Position numbers and translations under genes: made by a program
Assembly (NCBI RefSeq): GCF_964245895.1
Contig: NZ_CAXTOQ010000003.1
Location: forward strand, 3,187 to 67,186
Direction: 5' to 3'
DNA: 64,000 nucleotides
Source: an uncultured Amnibacterium sp.
Lineage (GTDB): Bacteria; Actinomycetota; Actinomycetes; Actinomycetales; Microbacteriaceae
Notes under the pieces: generated by a model
The model's input: the letters and a program-made list of their open reading frames with translations, nothing else
Databases searched by the model: none
What the model was told of the DNA's origin: nothing
Part shown: one piece after another, positions 231 through 21,603 of the stretch
Position numbering within the stretch: position 1 is the first letter of the stretch
Layout: the number at the start of each line of letters is the position of its first letter

Positions 231-1025
231 TCAGTCCTCCGAGCTGCTGTGGTGGTACATCGACTGGATCCCGACCCGGCCGGGGCCGACCATCTCCGCG
301 ACCCACATCTTGCCGAGCAGCCCGACCTTGATGCCGGGCACCGCGAAGGTGTTCATCGCCACCGACGAGTCCTTGTAGAGGAAGCGGCCCGGCTCCACCA
401 GGATCCGCTCGCCGGACCCGAGCGTGCGCTGCAGCACGTCCCCGTTGCCGTGCAGCATCAGCATCCCCGGCTGCCCCTTCGCGAAGAAGCGGTCGAGATA
501 CATGCCGCTGCCGCCATGCAGCAGGTTCGCCAGCCCCTTGATGCGCTGGAACGTGTAGTCGACCGCGTGGGAGGCGAGCAGGAACGCGTGCTCCCGCACG
601 TCCAGCTCGGTGTCCGCGTGGATCGGCATCACCACCAGCTCGCCCGGGGCGTCGCGGGAGAAGGCGATGCGTCCGGCACCCCCCGCGCTCAGCACGGAGT
701 ACGGCATGCCGTGCGCCCGACGCCTGGCCGGCAGGTCGAACTGCGACAGCGGGACATGCGGGTCCTTCCAGAGCATCGTGTGCTGCTCGAAGTACACGTG
801 ATCGTCCTGGTGCAGGTCGATCTCGGCGACCGGGACGTACTTCCCCTCCACCTGCAGGGTGGATCCGGAGAAGCTGAACTTCTCCATGTCCCGCAGCCGC
901 GGGGCCTCGCGCCACCCCGAGTCCGACACCTTGTCGTCGGCGTCGAGCGGGGCGCCGCAGGTGGCGCACTGCAGCGCGTCGGGCGCGTTGTTGAGCCGGC
1001 ACCAGCTGCAGACGATCAGTTCCAT
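231..1025 (-). CDS. AIM24 (DUF124/TIGR00266) family protein with N-terminal double zinc ribbon
   Basis: Start reset to MELIVCSWC; CxxC..CxxC ribbon followed by AIM24-like segments (VYFEQHTMLWKD, DVREHAFL, GQPGMLMLHGNG, GPGRVGIQSM). Confidence 0.8.
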   Translation of the reverse strand: MELIVCSWCRLNNAPDALQCATCGAPLDADDKVSDSGWREAPRLRDMEKFSFSGSTLQVEGKYVPVAEIDLHQDDHVYFEQHTMLWKDPHVPLSQFDLPARRRAHGMPYSVLSAGGAGRIAFSRDAPGELVVMPIHADTELDVREHAFLLASHAVDYTFQRIKGLANLLHGGSGMYLDRFFAKGQPGMLMLHGNGDVLQRTLGSGERILVEPGRFLYKDSSVAMNTFAVPGIKVGLLGKMWVAEMVGPGRVGIQSMYHHSSSED

Positions 1026-1323
1026 CGAACCTCCTCGGCCACGACCGACCTCTCCATCGCTGCGGGGATCGGGGCCGTCATCGGACCCGACATCGACGAC
1101 GGTAGTGATCCGTCCCGGTCCGGGCAGGGCTGCTGCGATCCGGTCAGGTTGCGTGCAGGTGGCCCGGGAGGCGGACTCGCTCGACTTCTGAGCCGCTCGC
1201 GCGTTCGCAGACACGTTCGAATGCTCGAGCGGTGCCGACGCAGTACTCTTCGCCCACCATCAGCACCTGCACCAGCACCTGACGACGCGGGCGTCCCACG
1301 CCCCGAGACGGGAGCAGTCGGCC

Positions 1324-10804: not shown

Positions 10805-12646
10805 TCAGAATCGGTTGGAGCGCACGCCGCGGCGCTCGCGTTCGGTGACCAGCTCGGCCTTGATCCGCCAGAGCAGCGCCGGCATCAGGCCGGCGGCGAG
10901 GCGGTCGAGGTCCTCGCGGGACGTCGGCACCTGCGGCGGGGCGGCCGGTCCCCCGGCGGTGCCCGCAGCGGGCGCCCCGCCGGCGGGAGGGGCCTCCATC
11001 GCCACGGGCTCGGGCGGCACCGGAGGCGGACCGGCCCCGTCCGGCCCCTCCCGCTGCACGACGGGATCCTCGGCCGTCGCGGGCGAACCGACGCGTACGG
11101 CCGGTCGCGGCAGCGGACGCGCGGGCGCGGAACCGCCGGCCGGCTCCGGCCACGAGCGCGCGACGGGGAGGCGCTGCAGCGGCAGCGCGCCGACGGGCTC
11201 GGCCTGCCGTGACGGCTCACCGAACCGCAGCGTCGGAGCCGGCCGTCGACCCGATCCCGGCTCCCCCGCGTCGGGCGCGCCGACCGGGACGGGCGTCCGG
11301 TCGACCCACCGCGCCGGGAGGGGAGGCGCGTCGTCCACCTCCCACGTCCGTCGCTGGAGGTCGACGACGGCGGCCGACGCCCGGGGCGCCGACGTCGGCA
11401 GGGTCGACCACGCCGGAGTCTCTGGCTCGTCCGCCGCTGCAGGCGCCGGGCTCCCGGCGACGCCCGGCGCTTCGAAGGTGAGCGGCTGGACGGGCGCGAA
11501 CGGCTCGACGCGTTCGGGCAGCGCGACGCGGGCGGCCCGGATCGGCGCTTCCGGGAGGTCGGAGTGCGCGCGGGACGGCCCCGGCCGACCGAGCCCGACG
11601 GGCTGCGGCGCGTCCGGCGCACCCTGCAGCACGCCGGGCGCGACACCTCCAGGTGTCGGAGGAGCGGACTGCCGGGCGGCCACCTCGGTCGCCTCGACGA
11701 CGTCCGACGGGCTCGCTCCGCCTCCCCGGACCGGCGCGACCGGATCGAGCCGCGTCCGCTGGATCATCGGCCCGGACGGGTCCAGCCGGTCGATGGTCGC
11801 CTCCGGTGACGACGACGGCAGCTCGAGGTGCGGCTCGAGGAACGGGTCGGACGGCGGGGTCGGGGGTGCGGCCTCCGGCGTCGACATGGCGGGCTGGAGT
11901 GACGGCTCCTGCCTCGCAGGTCGCGCGTCGATCGGCCGGACCGCCCGGGCACCCGCCTCCCGCTGCACCGGGGTCGGCGCGGAAGCCGCAGCCGACTCGG
12001 CAACCCGGCCGCGCGCGCTCCGCTGCACCGCCTGCTGGATCCGTTGCGCGATCGGCCGCCCAGGTTTGGCGGCGATCGGCCCGGGCCCGGCGGACGGTCC
12101 CGACGTCCATGCCGCGGCGGGCATGGATGCGGCCGCCGGGCGCGCGGACGCGACCGGGATCGCCGGGGGCCCGGCGACGTGCTCGCCCTCCGGCTCCCGG
12201 GTCGGGATCGCGGTCGCGATCGGCGGCGCGGCCGCCTCCGCCGTTTCCGCGTCCAGCTCCGTCCGGGGCTCGACGACCGGCTCCTCATCGCCCTCGGCGG
12301 CGAGGTCGCGCGCGGCGGCGCCGGTCGGGGCAGGCGCGGCGCGGACCATCGGCGCGGTCGACGGGGCGAGCGCTCGCGAGACCGTCGGCCCCCGCCGCTC
12401 GGGGGCGTCGAGCTCGATGACCCCGCTCGGTCCGTCGAGCCTCCGGCCGGAGCCGATCGACGGCGCGACGAGGCTCGGATCCGACCAGGCCGCGAGGCGA
12501 CCGGGGAAGGAGGCGGGTGCTGACACCAGCTCGATCGAGCCCACCGTCCGCTGCAGGGGCGGCAGGAAGCGCCAGCCGGCCGGCGCCGGAGGCCGGGTCA
12601 CGGGTGCCGGGGGCTCTGCGTCCCGGCGCTGCCACGGCCAGCGCAT
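10805..12646 (-). CDS. Pro/Ala-rich low-complexity CIS protein (613 aa) in the tape-measure position
   Basis: Co-oriented inside the CIS operon; N-terminus MRWPWQRR..GWRFLPPLQRTVG, C-terminal helix DLDRLAAGLMPALLWRIKAELVTERERRG; middle largely disordered. Confidence 0.7.
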   Translation of the reverse strand: MRWPWQRRDAEPPAPVTRPPAPAGWRFLPPLQRTVGSIELVSAPASFPGRLAAWSDPSLVAPSIGSGRRLDGPSGVIELDAPERRGPTVSRALAPSTAPMVRAAPAPTGAAARDLAAEGDEEPVVEPRTELDAETAEAAAPPIATAIPTREPEGEHVAGPPAIPVASARPAAASMPAAAWTSGPSAGPGPIAAKPGRPIAQRIQQAVQRSARGRVAESAAASAPTPVQREAGARAVRPIDARPARQEPSLQPAMSTPEAAPPTPPSDPFLEPHLELPSSSPEATIDRLDPSGPMIQRTRLDPVAPVRGGGASPSDVVEATEVAARQSAPPTPGGVAPGVLQGAPDAPQPVGLGRPGPSRAHSDLPEAPIRAARVALPERVEPFAPVQPLTFEAPGVAGSPAPAAADEPETPAWSTLPTSAPRASAAVVDLQRRTWEVDDAPPLPARWVDRTPVPVGAPDAGEPGSGRRPAPTLRFGEPSRQAEPVGALPLQRLPVARSWPEPAGGSAPARPLPRPAVRVGSPATAEDPVVQREGPDGAGPPPVPPEPVAMEAPPAGGAPAAGTAGGPAAPPQVPTSREDLDRLAAGLMPALLWRIKAELVTERERRGVRSNRF

Positions 12647-12649
12647 GCG

Positions 12650-12808
12650 TCAGCCGCCTTCCGCGGAGCGACGGTTCAGCTCCGAGATCGCCTCGACGTA
12701 GCGCAGCCGCTCGCGGTGCTCCAGGTCCAGGATGTCGTCGAGCGGCCAGTGGAAGTGGTAGGCGATGTACGCGACCTCCTCGCGGATGCGGTCGGTCGCG
12801 TACGTCAC
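12650..12808 (-). CDS. DUF6760-like small protein (resembles gpT/gpE' chaperone extension)
   Basis: VTYATDRIREEVAYIAYHFHWPLDDILDLEHRERLRYVEAISELN; lies in the -1 frame, overlapping the upstream stop by GTGA. Confidence 0.85.
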   Translation of the reverse strand: MTYATDRIREEVAYIAYHFHWPLDDILDLEHRERLRYVEAISELNRRSAEGG

Positions 12809-12817
12809 GATTCCCCC
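12767..12817 (-). promoter_or_regulatory. Candidate programmed -1 ribosomal frameshift signal: GGGGGAA slippery heptamer plus downstream stem-loop
   Basis: mRNA reads CTG GGG GAA TCG TGA; heptamer at 12817-12811, 7-nt spacer, perfect stem GTACGCGACC (12803-12794) / GGTCGCGTAC (12776-12767). Confidence 0.6.
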
Positions 12818-13218
12818 AGGCGACCACCTGCCAGGTCGGCCGTGAACCGGTGCTCGCACGCCGGGCAGGTGATCGCGATCCGCGTGTGGCCCTCGGCGTT
12901 GATCCGCCGGTAGAAGTCCTGCAGGAAAGCGACGTCGGACGCGTACATGCGCTCGACGACGCCGGCGTCGACCTTCGGCAGGGAGCCGAGCCGGGTGATC
13001 ACCCGGCCGAGCAGCACCACCGTCGTCCAGGCCGCGTGCTCCTGGACCTTGGCGTCGAACAGCGGCAGCAGCTCGTCCCTGGCCGTGGCGAGCCGCATCG
13101 TGCCGGACCGGTGCACCGCGCCGTCGTCGCCCAGGTAGCCGCGCGGCAGCTCGAAGTCGAACTCGGTCCGCAGCGCGGCCTGCTCCTCCTCCGCGGCGAC
13201 GGACACCGTGCGCTGCAT
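12805..13218 (-). CDS. Probable tail assembly chaperone of the CIS (C-terminal CxxC)
   Basis: TEFDFELPRGY, GTMRLATARDE, FLQDFYRRIN, ITCPACEHRF..GGRLGES; immediately after the tube gene, the chaperone position in contractile tails. Confidence 0.7.
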   Translation of the reverse strand: MQRTVSVAAEEEQAALRTEFDFELPRGYLGDDGAVHRSGTMRLATARDELLPLFDAKVQEHAAWTTVVLLGRVITRLGSLPKVDAGVVERMYASDVAFLQDFYRRINAEGHTRIAITCPACEHRFTADLAGGRLGES

Positions 13219-13661
13219 CAGCCCACGCTCGACTCGTCGTAGCAGACCGTGAACTTCTCGGTCGCCTGCTCGGCCGCACCCGCCTTCAGCGAGTTCAGCT
13301 CGACGCTGCGCACCCAGCAGTTGGTGAAGCTGTACGTCTTGATGGTGTCGCCCTTGTAGTCGAGCAGCGCCACCGACGCGGTCTTCCTCGCCCCGGCGAC
13401 GTCGCCGTCCATGACGACCTTCAGCCAGTCCGTGACCGTCTTGCTCTCGGTGAGCCCGCGGGTCACGGTGAACTCGCCCGCCTTCACCCGGCCGATCAGC
13501 TGCCGCACGATGTACTTGCCGTCCGAGGTCTGCTGCTTCAGCTCGATCTTGTCGACCTCGCTCTTCAGCCCGCTGACCTCGGTGACCTTCGGCACCTCGA
13601 TGCCGTCGATCTTGACGATGAAGCCGTTGGCCGGCGACGAGTCGAACTTGTCCAGCGCCAT
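13218..13661 (-). CDS. Major tail tube protein (T4 gp19-like, Hcp-fold)
   Basis: FIVKIDG, EVSGLKSE, FTVTRG, RKTASVALLD, YSFTNCW motifs; follows sheath. Confidence 0.92.
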   Translation of the reverse strand: MALDKFDSSPANGFIVKIDGIEVPKVTEVSGLKSEVDKIELKQQTSDGKYIVRQLIGRVKAGEFTVTRGLTESKTVTDWLKVVMDGDVAGARKTASVALLDYKGDTIKTYSFTNCWVRSVELNSLKAGAAEQATEKFTVCYDESSVG

Positions 13662-13690
13662 GTCGGGTCACTCCTCTCGATCAGGGTCGG

Positions 13691-15232
13691 TCACTCGCCG
13701 ACCAGGCCGGTGCCGCTCGAGAACTGCGCCAGCTGGAACACCACGAACTCCGCCGGCTTCACCGGGGCGACGCCGATCTGGCAGATCACCTGGCCCGCGT
13801 CGATGACCTCGGGCGGGTTGGTCTCCGCGTCGCACTTCACGAAGAACGCCTCCTGCTCGAGCGAGCCGAACAGCGAGCCCGCGCGCCACTCGTTCAGCAG
13901 GAAGGCGCGGATCGTGCGGGTCAGCCGGCCCCACAGCGCCTGGTCGTTCGGCTCGAACACCGCGAACTGGGTCTGGGTGAGGATCGACTTCTCGAGGTAG
14001 TTGAACAGCCGCCGGAGGTTGACGTAGCGCCAGGCGGGATCGCTCGAGAGGGTGCGGGCGCCCCAGACGCGGATGCCGCCGCCGGGGAAGCTGCGGATGA
14101 CGTTGACCCCGATCGGGTTCAGCAGCTCCTGCTCCGTGCGCGTGATCCTGGTGTGCAGGTCGACGGCGCCGCGGACGATCTCGTTCGCCGGCGCCTTGTG
14201 CACGCCGCGCTCGGCGTCGTTCCTGGCCCAGATCCCGGCCACGTGCCCGGAGGGGGGCACGAACCGGATCGTGCTGGTCACCGGGTCCTGCACCTTCACC
14301 CACGGGTAGTACAGGGCGGCGAACTTCGAGTCGTAGCCGGCGGTGCTCACCCGCCACTCGCGCACCTGCTGCGCGTTCATGCCGGGCGGGGAATCCAGGA
14401 TCGCCAGCCGGTCGCCCATCAGCTCGCAGTGGCTGATGACCCCCAGCTGCACGGCCTTCACGGTCTCGAGGTCGATCGCGCCCTGCTCGTAGGCGGCCAT
14501 CAGGTCCGGGACCGTCACCATCGTGACCTCCTCGATGGCCTCGAGGCCGCCGAACCCGGTCCGCTCGGCGGCGTCGCCGATGTAGCTGGCCGCGTCCACG
14601 GCACCGGGGACGGAGAGGTCGGTCGTGGCCGCCGTGGTCAGCTCGTAGGTGCCCTGGAGGGGGCCTGCGGCCGGCACCGGCTGCGACGCGACCTCGATGG
14701 CGACGAGCTTCGACTCGGCCGTGACCCTGGTCGCCACGAAGTCGGGGCTGGTCGGCGTGACGGACAGCCGCTCCCAGCTCTCGCTGCTCTTCCCCTCCGC
14801 CGACACGGTGACGTTCACGAGGTCGCCGCCCGGGTCGTCGCCGGTCGCCGGCTCGAACGCGACCTTCACGCCCTTCGTCGACGCGGCCTTCGCGGTCAGC
14901 AGGTAGCCGCCGGTCGACGCGGCGGCGAGCGCCGCGGTCGGCTTGGCTCCGCGTGCCGGTCGGCTCTTCGCCGCGGTGATGCGGACGATGTAGCAGTTGC
15001 CGCCGCCGTTGTTGAAGTACCCGTAGACGGCGTACCCGAGGTAGGAGCCGGCGGCGAGCCCGCCGAAGGTGTCGACGAACTGCGTCCAGTTCGACACGAG
15101 CGTCGGCGTGTTCTCGGGCCCGATCGGCGCGACGCCGACGAACGCGGCGACGGCGGTGCCGACGCCCTCGATCGGGCGCGTGCCGGCCTCGACCTCCTGC
15201 ACGTACACGCCGGGCGACAGATAGGTGGGCAT
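13691..15232 (-). CDS. Contractile tail sheath protein
   Basis: MPTYLSPGVYVQEV, YYPWVKVQDP, PPSGHVAGIWARND..RGVHKAPAN, WGARTLS, KPAEFVVF motifs. Confidence 0.96.
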   Translation of the reverse strand: MPTYLSPGVYVQEVEAGTRPIEGVGTAVAAFVGVAPIGPENTPTLVSNWTQFVDTFGGLAAGSYLGYAVYGYFNNGGGNCYIVRITAAKSRPARGAKPTAALAAASTGGYLLTAKAASTKGVKVAFEPATGDDPGGDLVNVTVSAEGKSSESWERLSVTPTSPDFVATRVTAESKLVAIEVASQPVPAAGPLQGTYELTTAATTDLSVPGAVDAASYIGDAAERTGFGGLEAIEEVTMVTVPDLMAAYEQGAIDLETVKAVQLGVISHCELMGDRLAILDSPPGMNAQQVREWRVSTAGYDSKFAALYYPWVKVQDPVTSTIRFVPPSGHVAGIWARNDAERGVHKAPANEIVRGAVDLHTRITRTEQELLNPIGVNVIRSFPGGGIRVWGARTLSSDPAWRYVNLRRLFNYLEKSILTQTQFAVFEPNDQALWGRLTRTIRAFLLNEWRAGSLFGSLEQEAFFVKCDAETNPPEVIDAGQVICQIGVAPVKPAEFVVFQLAQFSSGTGLVGE

Positions 15233-15320
15233 CAGGCTCCTCCGGGCGTTCTCACCGAGTCGGTGGGGCCAGCCTCCCCGGCGCAGGATCGCCGCACCCG
15301 TGCCCGCTGGTCCCGTGCGC

Positions 15321-15337
15321 GGGCACGCCGATCGCCC
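15321..15337. promoter_or_regulatory. GGGCA-N7-(T/C)GCCC palindrome, one mismatch, upstream of the sheath operon
   Basis: GGGCA CGCCGAT CGCCC; same spacing as the perfect copies at 22509 and 23235. Confidence 0.4.
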
Positions 15338-15405
15338 ATTCGGGCGGTGCGCGGGGGCAGCCGGTCACGAAACCGGTCGTTCGGGTCCGCATTCCGCGGC
15401 GCGGG

Positions 15406-15421
15406 GAGAACACACGTTCGA
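15406..15421. promoter_or_regulatory. LexA (SOS) box-like site
   Basis: GAGAAC ACAC GTTCGA, perfect GAAC-N4-GTTC core, about 35 bp upstream of the DUF222/HNH gene. Confidence 0.6.
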
Positions 15422-15454
15422 AGGTCTGTCGGTGGGTGGTGGTGTGATGGCCGT

Positions 15455-16779
15455 ATGGAAGAGGAGCGAGCCGCCGAGCCGGCCCCGTCGTCGACGGCCG
15501 AGCGTGATACGTGCTTCCTGCACACGCTGGAGCACACCGACCGGCTCGCGAACACGGCGGACGCGATGCGGTTGCAGGTGATGGCGGCCGGGTTCGAGGC
15601 GATGCTGCTGGACGAGGAGGAGCAGACCGGGATCATGCCTGCGCCGGATGATCCGGCGGTGCGGGCCTTCTTCCTCGACCAGTCGATCCGGCTGCGCACC
15701 ACGCGGCAGGCCGTGGAGGCGCGGATCGCGACGGCCCGGGTGCTGCAGGCGACGCTGCCGGCCACCTGGGCGGTGTTCCTGAGCGGCCGGGCGACGGAGC
15801 GCGGGGTGACGGTGGCGGCCGAGCAGGCCGAGGGCCTCGACGCGCAGCTTCGGCCGGCCTACGACACCAGGGCGGCCGAGCTCGTGCAGACGGAGCGGCC
15901 GAGCGTGCTGGAGCGGGAGCTCGGCGCGATCCGTGACCGGCTCGATCCGGACGGGGCGACGGCGCGCCACCGTCGGGAGACCGAACGGCGGCATCTGCGC
16001 GTCCGCGCGGATCGGGACGGGCAGGCGACGTTGACGATCCGGTCGACCGCGACGGACATCGCCGCGATGGTCGACAAGGTCCGCCGCGACGCCGTCGTCG
16101 CCCACGGGCGGCAGGGCGAATGCCGCACCCTCAGCCAGTTGGAGGTCGACCGCATCGCCGACGCCGTCCTCGGCGCCCCGACGATCGACGCGAGCGAGGC
16201 GCAGAGTCCCTCCTACCCGCTCGAGCGACTCGGTTCGAGCGAGCATCCGAGCGGAAGACGATCCAGGCGACGATCCTGGTCACGATGACGGCGCAGACCG
16301 CCACGGGCGCATCGGACGAGCCGGCCACGGTCGCTGGGATGGGCGCGATCGACGCCGACACCGCCCGGCACCTCCTCGCCCACACGCTGACCTGGACCCG
16401 GGCTCTGATCGACCCCGTCGACGAATCCGTCCTCGGAATCGACACCCACGAGCGCTACATCCCGGCCGGGTTGCGGAAGCTGATCCACCTGCGGATGCCG
16501 ACCTGCGTGGGTGACGACTGCGGGCTGCCATCCCACCGCACCGACCTCGACCACCTCGTCCGCCATGAGCACGACGGCCGCACCCGCCACGACAACCTGC
16601 AACCGCTGTGCCGCAAGGCCCATCAGATGAAGGACGAGGGCTTCATCGACGTCGTGATGGGCTCGGACGGCATCCCGGTCCTGCGAACGAAGTGGGGCGC
16701 CACGCGGCGCGCCAGGGTCGCCTTCACGGCGAGACCCCGCGCACCAGGGATCGAGCTCCCCGACGATCCGCCCTTCTGA
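15455..16779 (+). pseudogene. DUF222 + HNH endonuclease (13E12-like) gene split by a frameshift near 16221-16242
   Basis: Frame 1 from MEEERAAE gives DUF222-like helices (ARHRRETERRHLRV, RTLSQLEVD); frame 2 gives PATVAGMGAIDADTAR, TCVGDDC, DLDH..RHEHDGRT..DNLQPLCRKAH. Confidence 0.75.
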
Positions 16780-16844
16780 CGACCGGTGCGGGAATCGGCT
16801 CCCTTGGCGCGCACGGGCCTTGCGTTGAGACGATGACCGCGTCG

Positions 16845-18113
16845 CTACTTCGAGAGGGCGATGCTCTCCCGGTAGCCCCTGGCCCAACCGAGCAGGGCCT
16901 GCTGCCAGCCCGACGAGTTCGGCGAGTACCAATGCCCGGTCAAGGTGACTTTGGCTAACCCGGAGATACCGATCGCATTCAGTCGATCTTCGATGTCCGT
17001 GCCGACGTCGTACTTGTAGTCATCGGCTGCCTGGGGCGCGGTCGGCGACTTACCACCCTGGGCGGCGCCGACATCGCGCCTCATCTTGGCGATTCCGGCG
17101 GCGGCCGCCGACTCCCTCAGGATCCACGCTGCCCACATGTACCGCTCGTAGATCTTCGCGATCTCCCCCGCGGACAGCAGCTCCTCCGCCCCCGAGCAGA
17201 TCGAGGAGATCTCCGTGAACAGCTGCTGATACTCCGCCTCGGTCCCCGCAGCGTCGAACTTCGCAACATCGTCATCCGACATGGCCGCCAGACTCGTTGC
17301 CCGGTCACTGAAGCTCGCCTCGACCTCCCGCTCGTATCCGGCGAGCGACTCCAGATTGGAGGTGAGGAAGCCGACCGCGGTCTGATCGACGGCGGCGCCG
17401 GGAGTCTTCACCCCGAGATCGTTGTTCGAGGGAGCCTCGGGCACCTGGCCGGCCTTCGAACTCGCGTTCGCGACCTGGTTCCCCCGGATGTTCGTGACGT
17501 AGCCGCCAACGGCCGCAACAGCCGGATTCTCCGCCGTCTCGACGATCTTCTTGATCCGTCGAGCCCGCAGCCCGAGCGTGGTGAACTTCTTACCGAGCGC
17601 GCCCAATCCGGCCATCGCGAGCGGCTCGAAGGCACCGGCGGTGCCGACCGCGATCACCAGACCGATCACCTGAGCCTTCATCGCGTCGGTCTGCGCTTGC
17701 GCGGACTGCGCAGTCTGGAATCCGGCCGTCGCCTGATCGATGCCGTTCGTGATGCGATAGATCGCCTGCTGATAGCTCGCGCGGCGCTCCCCGAACTTCG
17801 CTCGCCACTTCACGTCGATGGCCAGGGCGTTCGACCTCGCCCGATCGGCGGCTCGCGCCTTCTCGAGATCAGCGACCCTGGAGTCGAGCGACGGCTTCGG
17901 GGGCTCGCGTTGGATCGCGGAGACCGGTCCGCGAGCCGTTGTCGTGCTGCGAGCGAGCATCGCGATCGTCGCCTGGTTCCCGGCCTGCTTCTGCAGGCGC
18001 AGCATCTCCGAGGCCGGCGGCGCGCTCGTCGACGATCTGGACTCGACGGCCGCGGCCCGGGCAGTCCGCTGCCGCTCGTGGTTCGGCTCCTCGCGACCCA
18101 GGCGTTCAGCCAT
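16845..18113 (-). CDS. Hypothetical protein (422 aa), candidate CIS cargo/effector
   Basis: Start MAERLGREEP after GGAGGGG SD; LRLQKQAGNQAT leader like DUF4157; hydrophobic hairpin VIGLVIAVGTAGAFEPLAMAGLGALG; lower GC and an in-frame TTA codon. Confidence 0.7.
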   Translation of the reverse strand: MAERLGREEPNHERQRTARAAAVESRSSTSAPPASEMLRLQKQAGNQATIAMLARSTTTARGPVSAIQREPPKPSLDSRVADLEKARAADRARSNALAIDVKWRAKFGERRASYQQAIYRITNGIDQATAGFQTAQSAQAQTDAMKAQVIGLVIAVGTAGAFEPLAMAGLGALGKKFTTLGLRARRIKKIVETAENPAVAAVGGYVTNIRGNQVANASSKAGQVPEAPSNNDLGVKTPGAAVDQTAVGFLTSNLESLAGYEREVEASFSDRATSLAAMSDDDVAKFDAAGTEAEYQQLFTEISSICSGAEELLSAGEIAKIYERYMWAAWILRESAAAAGIAKMRRDVGAAQGGKSPTAPQAADDYKYDVGTDIEDRLNAIGISGLAKVTLTGHWYSPNSSGWQQALLGWARGYRESIALSK

Positions 18114-18194
18114 GGCAGTGATCCCCTCCGCTCGACGCCAGCGGCTTACAGATGCGAGAGCGCTCCGCCGATCCACGCCTCAACGCAGAGCGGC

Positions 18195-18875
18195 TCACCC
18201 CTTCGCCCCCGGGTCCTCCTGCATCGCGCGGTCGGCCGACGCCACCGCGGCGCGCTCGAACCGGTCGCCCGGATCGCTGACGCTGACGCCGTCGCCCGTC
18301 GGGGTCCCGTCGACGGGACCGGAGCGCTGCTGGACCACGTGGGTCAGCTCGTGCGCGAGCGTGTGGCGGCCCTGATCGGAGGAGGGGTCGTACCGGCCGT
18401 TCTGGAAGACGACGTCGGATCCGACCGTGTAGGCGCTCGCCCCGACGGACGTCGCCGACTCGTGAGCGTCCGCGCCCGTGTGCACGCGCACGTCCCCGAA
18501 GTCGGAACCGAGCCGCCGCTCCATGTCGCCACGCACCGGCGAAGGCAGCGGCGATCCGCTGCCGCTCCGCAGCAGGCTGAGGACGGGCGACTCCTCCTCC
18601 CGCTGCACCGCCTCGGGCGAGCCGCTGTCGCTCCGGAGGCGGCTCATCTGCAGCTCCTCCTCCTCTTCCGGCTGCTCCTCCCGCTGCACGACCTCGGCGG
18701 TCGCCGCGTTGCCGACGGCGCGCTGCAGGGCGAGCACACCGTGCGGGCTCACATGTCCGGCGGCCGCGAGCTGCAGCGCCTCCGCCGCCTGGGCGGTGGA
18801 CGCGCCGGTCCTGGAGGGCCGGCCGAGCTCCTCCGCCGACTCCCGCTCGTCGCGGTGCTGCCGCTCCATCGCCAT
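18195..18875 (-). CDS. DUF4157 (eCIS core domain) protein, HExxH motif, no C-terminal toxin domain
   Basis: GSPLPSPVRGDMERRLGSDFGDVRVHTG..AYTVGSDVVF..LAHELTHVVQQ; start MAMERQ. Confidence 0.9.
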   Translation of the reverse strand: MAMERQHRDERESAEELGRPSRTGASTAQAAEALQLAAAGHVSPHGVLALQRAVGNAATAEVVQREEQPEEEEELQMSRLRSDSGSPEAVQREEESPVLSLLRSGSGSPLPSPVRGDMERRLGSDFGDVRVHTGADAHESATSVGASAYTVGSDVVFQNGRYDPSSDQGRHTLAHELTHVVQQRSGPVDGTPTGDGVSVSDPGDRFERAAVASADRAMQEDPGAKG

Positions 18876-18892: not shown

Positions 18893-20989
18893 TCAGCCCT
18901 GCGCCGCGAGTCCGCTCGAGGGCCGCTCCGGCGCGATCAGATCCCAGTATCGACCGAACTCGCCCTCCAGCGTCAGGCGGCCGAGCTTGCGGTACTCGCG
19001 CTGCACCCCGCCGATCAGGTGCCGCATCGCGACGGGCTCGTCGCCGGCCGCTGCGAGGTACGCGCTCGTGACCGCGGCGGAGCGGATGGCCCCTCCCGAC
19101 AGCTCGAAGGACGCGCCGAGGAACGTCAGATCCAAGTCGTCGCCGCGGGGCACGCCGCGGGCGAGCGAGATGTCCCACAGGCGCGAGCGGTGCGCCGCGT
19201 CGGGCATCGGGAAGTCGATGAGCACGTCCAGTCTGCGGAGGAACGCGTCGTCGATGTTCGCCCGCAGGTTCGTCGCCAGGATCGCGAGTCCGTCGAACGA
19301 CTCGATCCGCTGCAGCAGGTAGGCGCTCTCGATGTTCGCGTACCGGTCGTGGGCGTCCTTCACGTCGCTGCGCTTGCCGAACACCGAGTCCGCCTCGTCG
19401 AACAGCAGCACCGCGTTCGTCCGATCCGCCGCGGTGAAGATTCGGTCGAGGTTCTTCTCCGTCTCGCCGATGTACTTGTCGACGACCGACGCCAGATCGA
19501 TGACGTACAGGTCCAGCTCGAGCTGCCGCGCGACCACCTCCGCCGCCATCGTCTTGCCGGTGCCCGAGTCGCCGGCGAACAGGGCGACGACCCCGTGCCC
19601 GCGCCCACCGCCCGGCCGCATCCGCCAGTCGCCGAGCACCCGTTCCCGGTACCGGGCCCGGATCTCGAGCTCGTGCAGCGCGGACAGCGCCGTCGCCGGC
19701 AGCACCAGGTCGTCCCAGCCGACCGCGGGCTGGACCCGCCGGGCGAGCCGGTCCATCGCCGCGCCGTTCTGCGCCCGCGCGCCGGCGGCGAGGTGCGCCT
19801 CCGTCACGACCCCCTGCTCGGACGCGGCCGCCTGCCGCACCGCGGACCGCGCCGCCATCCGGATCTGGCCCGGATCGAGCCGGAACTGGGCGGTCGCGGC
19901 GCCCACCGGCAGGTCCCCGGCGGATCCGCCGAGCTCCTGCTGCCACAGCGTCGTCCGGTCCGCCGCGCCGGCGTCGACGCCGTCGACGACCAGCACCGGA
20001 TCACGGACCCAGTCCGGGTCCCACGGGCCGTGCCCGACGAAGACGGTCGGCAGGTCGCCGGCGCAGAGCGCCTGCAGGCAGAGCTCCTGCAACACGGCCG
20101 GGTCGGGAGCGGGCACGGGATGCGCGACGAGCCCGCGACCGGAGAGCAGGGCCTCGCGGGCGACGATCCGCGCGGTCCGCCTGGCCTCCTCCCGGGTGCC
20201 CGTCGACATCGCCGCCAGGTCGACCGTGAGCGCGCCGAAGCCCGCCTGCCCCAGCGCGGTGGCCGCGAGCCCGACGGAGGAGGAGAGCGACGACTCGCGC
20301 AGGTAGAGCAGCCGCGCGCCCGCCCGCACCGCCCGCACCACCGCCGTCGTGCTGCCCCAGGCGATCGCCGGCTCCTCGGTCAGCGCCGGCGTCGCCGCCG
20401 GGTCCGGGGCGTTGTCGCCCAGGAGGTGCGCGACCACCCGATCCGGCACGGTCAGCGCCCGGCTCGGCAGCGGCCGATCCGCGTCGTCCACGGTCAGCAG
20501 CAGGCCTGTCACGAGCGGCCCGTGGAGCAGGCGCCCGCGCGCGGAGGCGGAGGCGAGCGACGCGCCGGCGAGCTCGAGCGCCAGCCCGATCGAGGGCCGC
20601 CGGCGGGTGACGTCGTCGTTCAGGTAGCCGAACAGGGGCTCGAAGCGCGGATCGAGGTCGGCCGCGAGCGCGATGAGCAGCAGCTCGACGTCCAGCGCGC
20701 CGAGGTGGAACCGCCGGGTCAGATCGCGCAGCCGCAGGCGCTCCCCCGCCGCCTCCGCCTCGTCCGCGCGCCGCTCGCAGTCCTGCAGCATCGGCTGCAC
20801 CGCGGAGGCCGGACTCGTGCCGCGCTCGCCCGCCAGCAGCCGGTCGGCCATCGCGTCCGTGATGTACAGGCCCCGGAACGGGTCGTCCGGCTGAGGATCC
20901 GACGCCCGACGCGACGCGATCAGCCGCCGCACCCGGTCCTCCACGACGCCGACCCGGGCGAGGAGGTGCGTGGTGCTCGCGTCGCTCAT
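18893..20989 (-). CDS. CIS AAA+ ATPase (Afp15/Pvc15-like)
   Basis: Start MSDASTTHLLAR; Walker A GDSGTGKT, VVDKYIGETEKNL, Walker B LLFDEAD, ATNLRANIDDAFLRR. Confidence 0.93.
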   Translation of the reverse strand: MSDASTTHLLARVGVVEDRVRRLIASRRASDPQPDDPFRGLYITDAMADRLLAGERGTSPASAVQPMLQDCERRADEAEAAGERLRLRDLTRRFHLGALDVELLLIALAADLDPRFEPLFGYLNDDVTRRRPSIGLALELAGASLASASARGRLLHGPLVTGLLLTVDDADRPLPSRALTVPDRVVAHLLGDNAPDPAATPALTEEPAIAWGSTTAVVRAVRAGARLLYLRESSLSSSVGLAATALGQAGFGALTVDLAAMSTGTREEARRTARIVAREALLSGRGLVAHPVPAPDPAVLQELCLQALCAGDLPTVFVGHGPWDPDWVRDPVLVVDGVDAGAADRTTLWQQELGGSAGDLPVGAATAQFRLDPGQIRMAARSAVRQAAASEQGVVTEAHLAAGARAQNGAAMDRLARRVQPAVGWDDLVLPATALSALHELEIRARYRERVLGDWRMRPGGGRGHGVVALFAGDSGTGKTMAAEVVARQLELDLYVIDLASVVDKYIGETEKNLDRIFTAADRTNAVLLFDEADSVFGKRSDVKDAHDRYANIESAYLLQRIESFDGLAILATNLRANIDDAFLRRLDVLIDFPMPDAAHRSRLWDISLARGVPRGDDLDLTFLGASFELSGGAIRSAAVTSAYLAAAGDEPVAMRHLIGGVQREYRKLGRLTLEGEFGRYWDLIAPERPSSGLAAQG

Positions 20990-21603
20990 CTCGCCCGCCG
21001 TACGGGTCGTTCGAGTCGTTCGACGACGGACCCGTCGAAGGTCCGGATCTCGGGAACGGGCCGGCTCAGGACCGGCGGTCCGAGCGCGAGGGCGACGTCG
21101 GCGAGCGCCGGCGCGATGACGACGAGGTCCAGCGACGGCTTCAGCTCGCCGCCGAGCGACGACCAGACGTCGGCGAAGGCGCGGTCCTCGGGAGGCGGCA
21201 GCGCGATGCTCACCGGCACCGGGCTGGCGATGTCCGCGAGCGACCCGGTCAGGGTCTCGGGCGGCAGCGCGTCCAGCCGGTCGAACGAGGTCAGCATCCG
21301 GTCGAGCAGGCGGTGCTCGTCCTCCGGCCGCTGCACCCACGCGGTGAGCAGGTAGGACAGCTTGAAGTAGCGGGCCGGTCGGCTCCTCGTGCGGACCGTG
21401 CCGTCGTCGCTGCGCCGCTCGACGACGCCGTTCTCCCGCCGGCGGACGTCCTCGCGGATGTCGTAGAGGAACGCGTCGATGGTCGGGCCGCTCCGTCGCG
21501 CCGCCCAGTCCGTCGTCGGCGCATCGAAGGCCAGCTCGACCTCGCCGTGACCGAGGACGGCCCCCAGCACCTGCTTGATGGACTCGTCGACCTCCGTGAT
21601 CAC
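20986..21603 (-). CDS. DUF4255 (Pvc16/Afp16-like tail terminator) protein
   Basis: AFDAPTTDWAARRSGPTIDAFLYDIRED, YLLTAW..PEDEHRLL, GELKPSLDLV motifs. Confidence 0.9.
   Translation of the reverse strand: MITEVDESIKQVLGAVLGHGEVELAFDAPTTDWAARRSGPTIDAFLYDIREDVRRRENGVVERRSDDGTVRTRSRPARYFKLSYLLTAWVQRPEDEHRLLDRMLTSFDRLDALPPETLTGSLADIASPVPVSIALPPPEDRAFADVWSSLGGELKPSLDLVVIAPALADVALALGPPVLSRPVPEIRTFDGSVVERLERPVRRAR

Follow-up and report, generated by a model that had tools for sequence, protein, structure and literature searches.

The DNA analysed here, referred to as the window, is a stretch of 64,000 nucleotides from an uncultured Amnibacterium sp. (Microbacteriaceae; contig NZ_CAXTOQ010000003.1, positions 3,187 to 67,186), and it carries a contractile injection system (CIS) cluster in which the tripeptide [VIL]QR was noted in three proteins. 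As the G+C content of the window is ~73%, genes were called by third-position G+C (GC3 frame analysis), and the cluster was located by Pfam matches at 4.9-21.6 kb on the minus strand. The genome itself is a 3.6-Mb draft with an estimated completeness of 93%. Sheath, gp19-type tube, VgrG-like spike, Baseplate_J, Pvc16-type cap and AAA+ ATPase are all encoded together, and the synteny is common to 80 loci collected via the sheath protein, many of them from Streptomyces, while the nearest sheath relatives are found in Agromyces and Microbacterium (65-67% identity). In type, the cluster belongs to the Streptomyces CIS-Sc/SLP-like lineage, of which it is an ordinary representative. The order of transcription starts with the cap (20986-21603) and runs down the minus strand towards P2_I, passing the AAA+ ATPase, a stand-alone DUF4157 protein of 226 aa, a candidate effector, the sheath, the tube, a 133-aa protein, a DUF6760 protein, a Pro/Ala-rich protein of 613 aa (P613) and a second tube protein, beyond which a CIS_tube protein, VgrG, Baseplate_J and P2_I follow.

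P613 is mostly disordered, and its gene lies in the slot of a tape measure, flanked by the genes of DUF6760 and of the second tube protein. The succession tube, 133-aa protein, DUF6760, P613, second tube, CIS_tube and VgrG that defines this position was found in the window and in 69 loci, yet P613 gave no match to Pfam, PHROG, NCBIfam or the PDB, including the known tape-measure families. Along its length, seven [VIL]QR tripeptides are found (LQR31, VQR207, VQR227, IQR295, LQR430, LQR490 and VQR530, accompanied by AQR200 and WQR5), where its own composition predicts 0.28 (Poisson 2e-8; 0 of 20,000 shuffles reached seven). The stand-alone DUF4157 protein has three (0.18 expected, p = 8.5e-4), and the effector has one (0.30 expected) plus an LQK. 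An earlier sequence-only reading of the window had listed pentapeptides around such sites in these three proteins, and all of them were recovered, although IAQRI, being an AQR, falls strictly outside [VIL]QR; in the effector, the listed RLQKQ and AIQRE are present, but the enrichment in this protein alone is not significant.

The concentration of the motif in P613 is exceptional for the genome. [VIL]QR occurs genome-wide at 1.3-fold over expectation, and P613 is the single extreme outlier among the coding-like open reading frames (ORFs), the runner-up having p = 8e-4. Composition-matched sequence, namely 71,180 aa of further Pro/Ala-rich sequence from this genome, holds 16 motifs against 12.2 expected, so the absence of enrichment over such proteins, which the sequence-only reading had named as the result that would refute it, was not what was found. 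Within the cluster, no [VIL]QR occurs in the sheath, the two tube proteins, the LysM-slot tube protein or the P2_I protein, VgrG, Baseplate_J and the cap have one each, and the AAA ATPase has two, both within the folded domain. The same reading had noticed no motif series in sheath, tube or baseplate proteins, in agreement with these counts of none or one. Overall, proteins that probably fill the tube of this phage-tail-like machine are enriched in the motif 25- to 100-fold within their disordered parts.

The enrichment extends to the family of proteins encoded in the same slot. A tblastn search with P613 against the 80 loci gave no match, and the slot proteins were therefore recovered by synteny, as the open frame filling the slot. 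The order sheath, tube, 133-aa protein, DUF6760, slot gene, second tube, CIS_tube and VgrG is shared by Actinomycetota and five genomes of Chloroflexia. Slot proteins were obtained from 69 loci, two of which (L042, wrong frame; L029, truncated) were excluded from later statistics. These proteins range from 613 to 1336 aa and hold 838 [VIL]QR against 24.2 expected, with seven copies in P613 and 5-32 in nearly every relative. Against 832 occurrences of the motif, permuted tripeptides reach 8-108, 42% of all Gln precede Arg, and the residue before Gln is Val in 69%. The context is likewise restricted, with Pro enriched at -2 and -3 from Gln and Ala, Ser, Arg or Thr after Arg, leading to the fuller consensus P-[PA]-V-Q-R-[AS]. 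In an alignment of P613 with eight Microbacteriaceae orthologues, the QR sites form conserved islands (44% identity compared with 20% in the flanks), while the ends of the aligned proteins are conserved as MRWPW and GWxFLPPLQR N-terminally and as a helix C-terminally, the latter having the consensus L..LA..LY.PL.RRLKAELLLDRERRG in both Actinomycetota and Chloroflexia. The motifs are spread evenly, with a median spacing of 50 residues, a coefficient of variation (CV) of 0.79 and a depletion of short spacings, and no periodicity matching tube rings was found in the slot proteins. Codon usage inside the motif is the same as in the whole gene, pointing to selection on the protein and not on the DNA. 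The structural proteins of the same loci lack enrichment (sheath, 1 against 19.6 expected; VgrG, 4 against 16.4), and the AAA ATPase reaches 6-fold over expectation from two conserved positions in its folded domain. Judged by these patterns, [VIL]QR is a short linear motif that is specific and under selection as protein sequence.

Two further features of the slot proteins were observed. Many have a second conserved island, R-[RIFM]-G-L-G-A-P-L-P, in their disordered middle, of which the window copy is degenerate (VGLGRPGP). In one Chloroflexia metagenome-assembled genome (L031), the slot protein (gene ~12606-14841) holds an eCIS_core/DUF4157 domain (E = 1.8e-15) located ~130 residues before the conserved C-terminal helix, and 12 of its 13 QR are preceded by Pro or Ala instead of Val.

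The stand-alone DUF4157 protein clearly belongs to PF13699, as one of its ordinary short members (residues 109-186 score 114.7 bits, with the cut-off at 22), adjoins the candidate effector in the CIS cluster, and is the only DUF4157 of the genome according to a whole-genome search. The sequence-only reading had described it as keeping HELTH without a toxin domain. This is borne out, and the catalytic signature HExxHxxQ...E is complete, with E207, in DRFE, as the third zinc ligand; H175, E176, H179, Q182 and E207 are invariant in alignments of 17 and 116 homologues. AlphaFold2 was used to model the window protein (17 aligned sequences) and a homologue with three tail motifs (116 sequences), and the DUF4157 core was predicted with the expected helices and small sheet at a pLDDT score of ~90. 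Statistics on short DUF4157 proteins were based on the best 120 of 4,985 homologues from a database search. In this set, the N-terminal tails carry 136 motifs (5.8 expected) and the C-terminal tails 270 (2.7 expected), or 406 against 8.5 when both disordered tails are pooled, while inside the DUF4157 domain there are none against 6.6 expected, and HExxHxxQ is kept in 120/120. In most short homologues (P0010-P0120), the C-terminus is an acidic tail where one to four VQR occur, in units like VQGxFVQREE. The closest relatives of the window protein (P0002-P0009, 73-80% identity) are mostly without this tail and have an acidic VQR block between leader and domain, the pre-domain element being duplicated in P0002. 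The window copy thus differs from most short PF13699 homologues in that its acidic VQR block is N-terminal to the domain, whereas theirs is in the C-terminal tail. Finally, all five genomes without a DUF4157 in the CIS cluster have a copy elsewhere in the genome, and among these five there was no natural case of the motif in a genome devoid of DUF4157.

The position of the motif becomes most precise in the cargo region. Between the AAA and sheath genes, the loci are variable, and the DUF4157 or cargo-like proteins encoded there start with a common leader, [LIVM]-Q-[RKQ]-x-x-G-N-x-A, with a [VIL]QR 10-35 residues further on, directly before the folded part. In the window, both the DUF4157 protein and the effector have L-Q-[RK]-x-x-G-N-x-A followed by [VI]QRE, the first motif of each being part of this longer leader. 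Among the coding-like ORFs of the genome, a search with the leader pattern retrieved the effector only; the DUF4157 ORF lies outside this set, and its copy was seen directly. Homologues place the start of the effector at 18113, giving a protein of 422 aa, not 443, which consists of the leader, the IQR junction and a helical domain with a hydrophobic hairpin. A tblastn search with the effector against the 80 loci gave no match. In an effector family of 18 members, the junction column is occupied by [VIL]QR in 11 and by [VILA]-x-R in the rest bar one, and the column is the same behind a bare leader as it is behind DUF4157. The effector domain is fused behind DUF4157 in at least three members (P0123, P0126 and P0137), supporting the reading of the window gene as cargo, and by their domain layout these predicted fusions are a case of polymorphic-toxin-style module shuffling. 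The same placement is seen in eleven orphan Streptomyces DUF4157-toxin fusions, taken from genomes without DUF4157 in the CIS cluster: VQR precedes HExxH by exactly 75 residues and abuts the first conserved element of the domain (VQR|SxVxDVLRSxGxPLD) in 11/11, and a further VQR lies at +48 to +86 from HExxH, between domain and toxin, in 10/11. DUF4157 fusions inside clusters show the same junction placement. In the alignments, the motif marks module boundaries, namely leader/effector, leader/DUF4157 and DUF4157/toxin.

The proteins bearing [VIL]QR, i.e., the slot protein, DUF4157 and the leader-bearing effector, probably all occupy the lumen of the tube. The gene of P613 occupies the tape-measure slot, and P613 is not simply cargo. 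The coordinates of all features are given in Table 1.

Table 1 Features of the CIS cluster and its surroundings, in coordinates of the window.
Feature	Position	Strand	Basis or remark
Pvc16-type cap	20986-21603	-	Pfam
AAA+ ATPase, winged-helix N-domain and one AAA domain, Cis15/Pvc15/Alg15-type loader	18893..20995	-	Pfam PF22977, PF00004; NCBIfam CDC48/PAN-like
Stand-alone DUF4157 (eCIS_core), 226 aa	18195..18875	-	Pfam PF13699
DUF4157 leader core LQRAVGNAA, including LQR50	18702..18728	-	L50, R52, G55 and N56 invariant in 17 homologues
VQR63 of DUF4157, followed by acidic stretch	18681..18689	-	Motif scan, homologues
VQR90 of DUF4157, immediately upstream of the first conserved element of the domain (ESPVLSLLRSGSGSPLP)	18600..18608	-	Alignment
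eCIS_core domain, residues 109-186	18318..18551	-	Pfam; AlphaFold2 pLDDT ~90
HELTHVVQ at residue 175 of DUF4157	18330-18353	-	HExxHxxQ signature
Candidate effector, 422 aa	16845..18113	-	Homologue-supported start; no prior annotation
Effector leader core LQKQAGNQA (pattern L-Q-[RK]-x-x-G-N-x-A)	17970..17996	-	Motif comparison
IQR at effector leader/domain junction	17907..17915	-	Family alignment
DUF222/HNH endonuclease gene, two overlapping frames	15419-16779	+	15419-16288 (DUF222, E = 7e-9); 16120-16779 (HNH, E = 1.5e-4)
Sheath, without motif	13691-15232	-	Pfam
gp19-type tube, without motif	13218-13661	-	Pfam
133-aa protein, C-terminal CxxC; possible tail-assembly-chaperone analogue	12805..13206	-	PHROG 508 'tail assembly chaperone', weak, E = 0.008
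DUF6760 small protein	12650..12808	-	Pfam PF20546, E = 1.1e-11
P613, 613 aa, Pro/Ala-rich	10805..12646	-	GC3 frame analysis
LQR31 of P613, within conserved N-terminal element GWxFLPPLQR	12548..12556	-	Nearby QR in 6/8 Microbacteriaceae orthologues
AQR200 and VQR207 of P613 (PIAQRIQQAVQRS)	12020..12049	-	QR kept in 6/8 and 7/8 orthologues, respectively
VQR227 of P613	11960..11968	-	Lineage-specific, 0/8 orthologues
IQR295 of P613	11756..11764	-	Motif scan
LQR430 of P613	11351..11359	-	Nearby QR in 5/8 orthologues
LQR490 of P613	11171..11179	-	Motif scan
VQR530 of P613	11051..11059	-	Motif scan
Conserved C-terminal helix of P613 (LDRLAAGLMPALLWRIKAELVTERERRG...), sequence anchor of the family	10808..10909	-	Alignments
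Second tube protein (gp19 type; Afp5/SlpT2-like tube initiator), next gene downstream of P613	10360..10794	-	Pfam PF06841
AIM24-domain protein	231-1214	-	E = 4.7e-24

Directly upstream of the slot gene, the genes of the 133-aa protein and the DUF6760 protein share a 4-nt overlap, and both proteins are kept in 80/80 loci; their arrangement resembles the chaperone pair preceding phage tape-measure genes. Between the sheath and the cargo genes, the cluster is broken up by a DUF222/HNH endonuclease gene on the plus strand, which lies in two overlapping frames and probably represents a mobile HNH element, frameshifted, that has inserted here. The baseplate genes are followed at their downstream end by a gene for an AIM24-domain protein.

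Several components can be compared with systems described in the literature. By published description, the AlgoCIS proteins Cgo1 and Cgo2 have a similar layout of disordered N-terminal leader, DUF4157 and variable C-terminus, and an AAA+ ATPase is encoded in that cluster as well; loading by a disordered leader together with the AAA+ protein Alg15 has been established there (Xu et al. 2022, PMC8894135; 10.64898/2026.05.27.728243). The AlgoCIS PROCIS preprint regards loading leaders as not conserved between systems (10.64898/2026.05.27.728243), whereas here the leader and the junction [VIL]QR are common to many actinobacterial and Chloroflexia clusters and the motif is found in the slot protein too. 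In the SLP system of S. lividans, the small DUF4157 gene sle2 adjoins the DUF4157-less effector gene sle1 beside the sheath gene, and Sle1, by published description (Nagakubo et al.), resembles the window effector in its helical N-terminal part and hydrophobic hairpin. In the window, the DUF4157 gene likewise adjoins the effector gene, while the sheath gene is 1.6 kb off, across the inserted HNH pseudogene. Gene orientation differs between the two systems, and Sle2 is described as a binding and stabilising partner, with no motif or proteolysis reported. P613 shares with the tape measures Afp14/Pvc14/Alg14, P2 gpT and lambda gpH, and with Tme of the S. davawensis CIS, its place, which follows chaperone-like genes and precedes those of the tube initiator and spike. 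Yet it is Pro/Ala-rich, appears disordered rather than helical, and has no sequence similarity to any tape-measure family. Related lineages fuse DUF4157 to a protein of the P613 kind, and P613 itself has the conserved C-terminal helix; tme-like genes fuse DUF4157 to a tape-measure-related effector (PMC11126660), and the eCIS_core domain within the Chloroflexia slot protein matches these published fusions. In related Streptomyces CIS, the tape-measure gene was described as absent and the particles as uniform in length (PMC10066040, PMC12237407). DUF4157 function is called 'elusive' in reviews and surveys, and no substrate or recognition motif of DUF4157 is named in PMC3482391, PMC8213781 (Geller et al. 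2021) or PMC11297309. In the literature searched, the slot protein is undescribed and no mention of a QR motif in CIS proteins was found.

In phage T4, internal proteins lose their targeting leaders to the prohead protease gp21, which also cuts up the scaffold, both at a shared (L/I)-x-E tripeptide, while viral polyprotein proteases are flanked by their own cleavage sites. The CIS proteins could follow a similar logic, as one motif occurs in leaders and in a many-copy scaffold-like protein and also brackets a predicted protease domain. This is an analogy of logic only, since DUF4157 is a predicted zincin and gp21 has a herpesvirus-like serine protease fold, and since the tail tube lumen takes the place of the capsid. 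The sequence-only reading had proposed [VIL]QR as a mark of lumen cargo, read either by DUF4157 as cleavage sites or by the AAA ATPase as grip points. The first part stands insofar as the motif marks CIS proteins expected in the lumen and leaves the structural proteins unmarked. As for the reader, the motif lies at leader/domain and domain/toxin junctions and brackets DUF4157, and among the proposed readers this positional evidence, circumstantial as it is, favours cleavage by DUF4157. We thus read [VIL]QR, with some reserve and at less than even confidence, as recognition and cleavage sites of the predicted DUF4157 zinc peptidase. DUF4157 was predicted earlier as an autoproteolytic releasing peptidase (Zhang et al. 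2012, PMC3482391), and the motif would name the site of that peptidase and extend its substrates in trans to the neighbouring cargo and the slot protein.

If so, the peptidase would be co-loaded via its own L-Q-R-x-x-G-N-x-A leader and would cut in cis or in trans, either while the tube is being assembled, once it is complete, or following ejection. Cleavage would remove leaders and free toxin domains, and the disordered slot protein would be cut into pieces of ~50 residues. The variable residue after Arg would be compatible with a cut after Arg, while the hydrophobic first position would be equally compatible with a thermolysin-like cut before Val. As a doubtful but specific extension, it could be speculated that DUF4157 is a maturation protease of the tail-tube lumen, which loads through its own leader, cuts at [VIL]QR, releases cargo and dismantles a disordered, non-helical length ruler after the tube is built.

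A number of observations weigh against cleavage by DUF4157. No such cleavage is reported in the literature found, loading of AlgoCIS does not need DUF4157 (10.64898/2026.05.27.728243), and HExxH mutations left the toxicity of Cgo1 in E. coli unaltered. Sle2 binds and stabilises a neighbouring effector and binds the tube initiator, which makes it adaptor-like, with no processing reported (10.1101/2025.11.06.686954 / PMC13277306). The PVC signal peptide is uncleaved in particles, although the PVC lineage is without DUF4157. In the two AlphaFold2 models, the motif segments were helical at moderate confidence or disordered (pLDDT 42-53), with no docking in the cleft, so the proposal of DUF4157 as the reader drew no support from them. 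A Foldseek search with the DUF4157 model against the PDB gave no match at E <= 0.001, the best relevant one being proabylysin (4jiu, TM 0.52, target-normalised). Pro is often directly before Val, which is unusual at P1 for a cut before Val. Finally, avoidance of the motif in structural proteins, considered as a sign of a protease, could not be established, as permuted control tripeptides were equally uneven because homologous positions are not independent.

Several of these points fit an uncleaved docking motif, which is the main alternative, possible though rather doubtful. Here, [VIL]QR would be a multivalent contact tying lumen proteins to a partner, be it the lumen-facing side of the tube rings, the tube initiator, the AAA+ loader through 'grip points', or the cleft of DUF4157 acting as a non-catalytic adaptor. 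The slot protein would have many copies because it spans the length of the tube, whereas cargo has one to three. The enrichment, conservation and protein-level selection fit docking equally well, and so does the even spread of the motifs with depleted short spacings (median 50 aa, CV 0.79), although the spacing shows no periodicity fitting tube rings. It is in its favour that Sle2 stabilises Sle1, binding it in its N-terminal region, and also binds the tube initiator SlpT2, that AlgoCIS loading requires a disordered N-terminal domain and Alg15 but not DUF4157, and that the PVC leader stays uncleaved; a chaperone role of DUF4157, either in cis or in trans, has moreover been proposed (Danov et al. 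2024, PMC11297309). Docking leaves unexplained, however, why the motif is placed so precisely at junctions and brackets the DUF4157 domain, and why a toxin-less stand-alone DUF4157 has an invariant catalytic Glu and zinc ligands.

In phage lambda, gpG/gpGT coat the tape measure and are displaced during tube polymerisation. Analogously, the motifs might bind the chaperone-like 133-aa protein and DUF6760, which would coat the slot protein and be displaced as the tube polymerises. This is unlikely: the gene order of chaperones followed by tape measure, the 4-nt overlap of the two small genes, their retention in 80/80 loci and the resemblance of the 133-aa protein to PHROG 508 'tail assembly chaperone' (E = 0.008) are in its favour, but the PHROG match is weak, and the motifs in orphan DUF4157-toxin fusions far from such chaperones, as well as the junction placement, are left unexplained. 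A functionless by-product, whether of chance, of Pro/Ala/Arg-rich composition, of low-complexity sequence with a common ancestry or of a DNA-level repeat such as GTGCAGCGG, is very improbable in spite of the low complexity of the proteins and the commonest encoding, GTGCAGCG[CG], since neither shuffles nor composition-matched controls from this genome reveal enrichment elsewhere, permuted tripeptides are less frequent by 8- to 100-fold, synonymous codons occur in gene-wide proportions with Leu and Ile variants present, and the motif recurs in otherwise unalignable proteins across two phyla; chance, composition and, through codon usage, the DNA-level repeat were ruled out by these controls, as far as sequence statistics can do so.

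What the literature searched does not describe is the motif itself, while the cluster type, the membership of DUF4157 and loading by a leader plus an AAA+ protein were already known. DUF4157 is the most widespread marker of extracellular and cytoplasmic CIS cargo, being found in 13 phyla and in about half of the predicted toxins. A candidate site of five to six residues, common to cargo junctions, the flanks of DUF4157 and the protein in the tape-measure slot, makes DUF4157 function accessible to a simple assay of peptide cleavage or binding. It also matters for engineered delivery particles, where it bears on the fusion point for cargo and on whether the leader is removed, and for length setting in Streptomyces-type systems without a recognisable tape measure. 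If DUF4157 does act as a maturation protease of the tube lumen, it would be a tail-side counterpart of phage prohead maturation and would explain how a CIS branch seemingly without a tape measure nevertheless has particles of uniform length.

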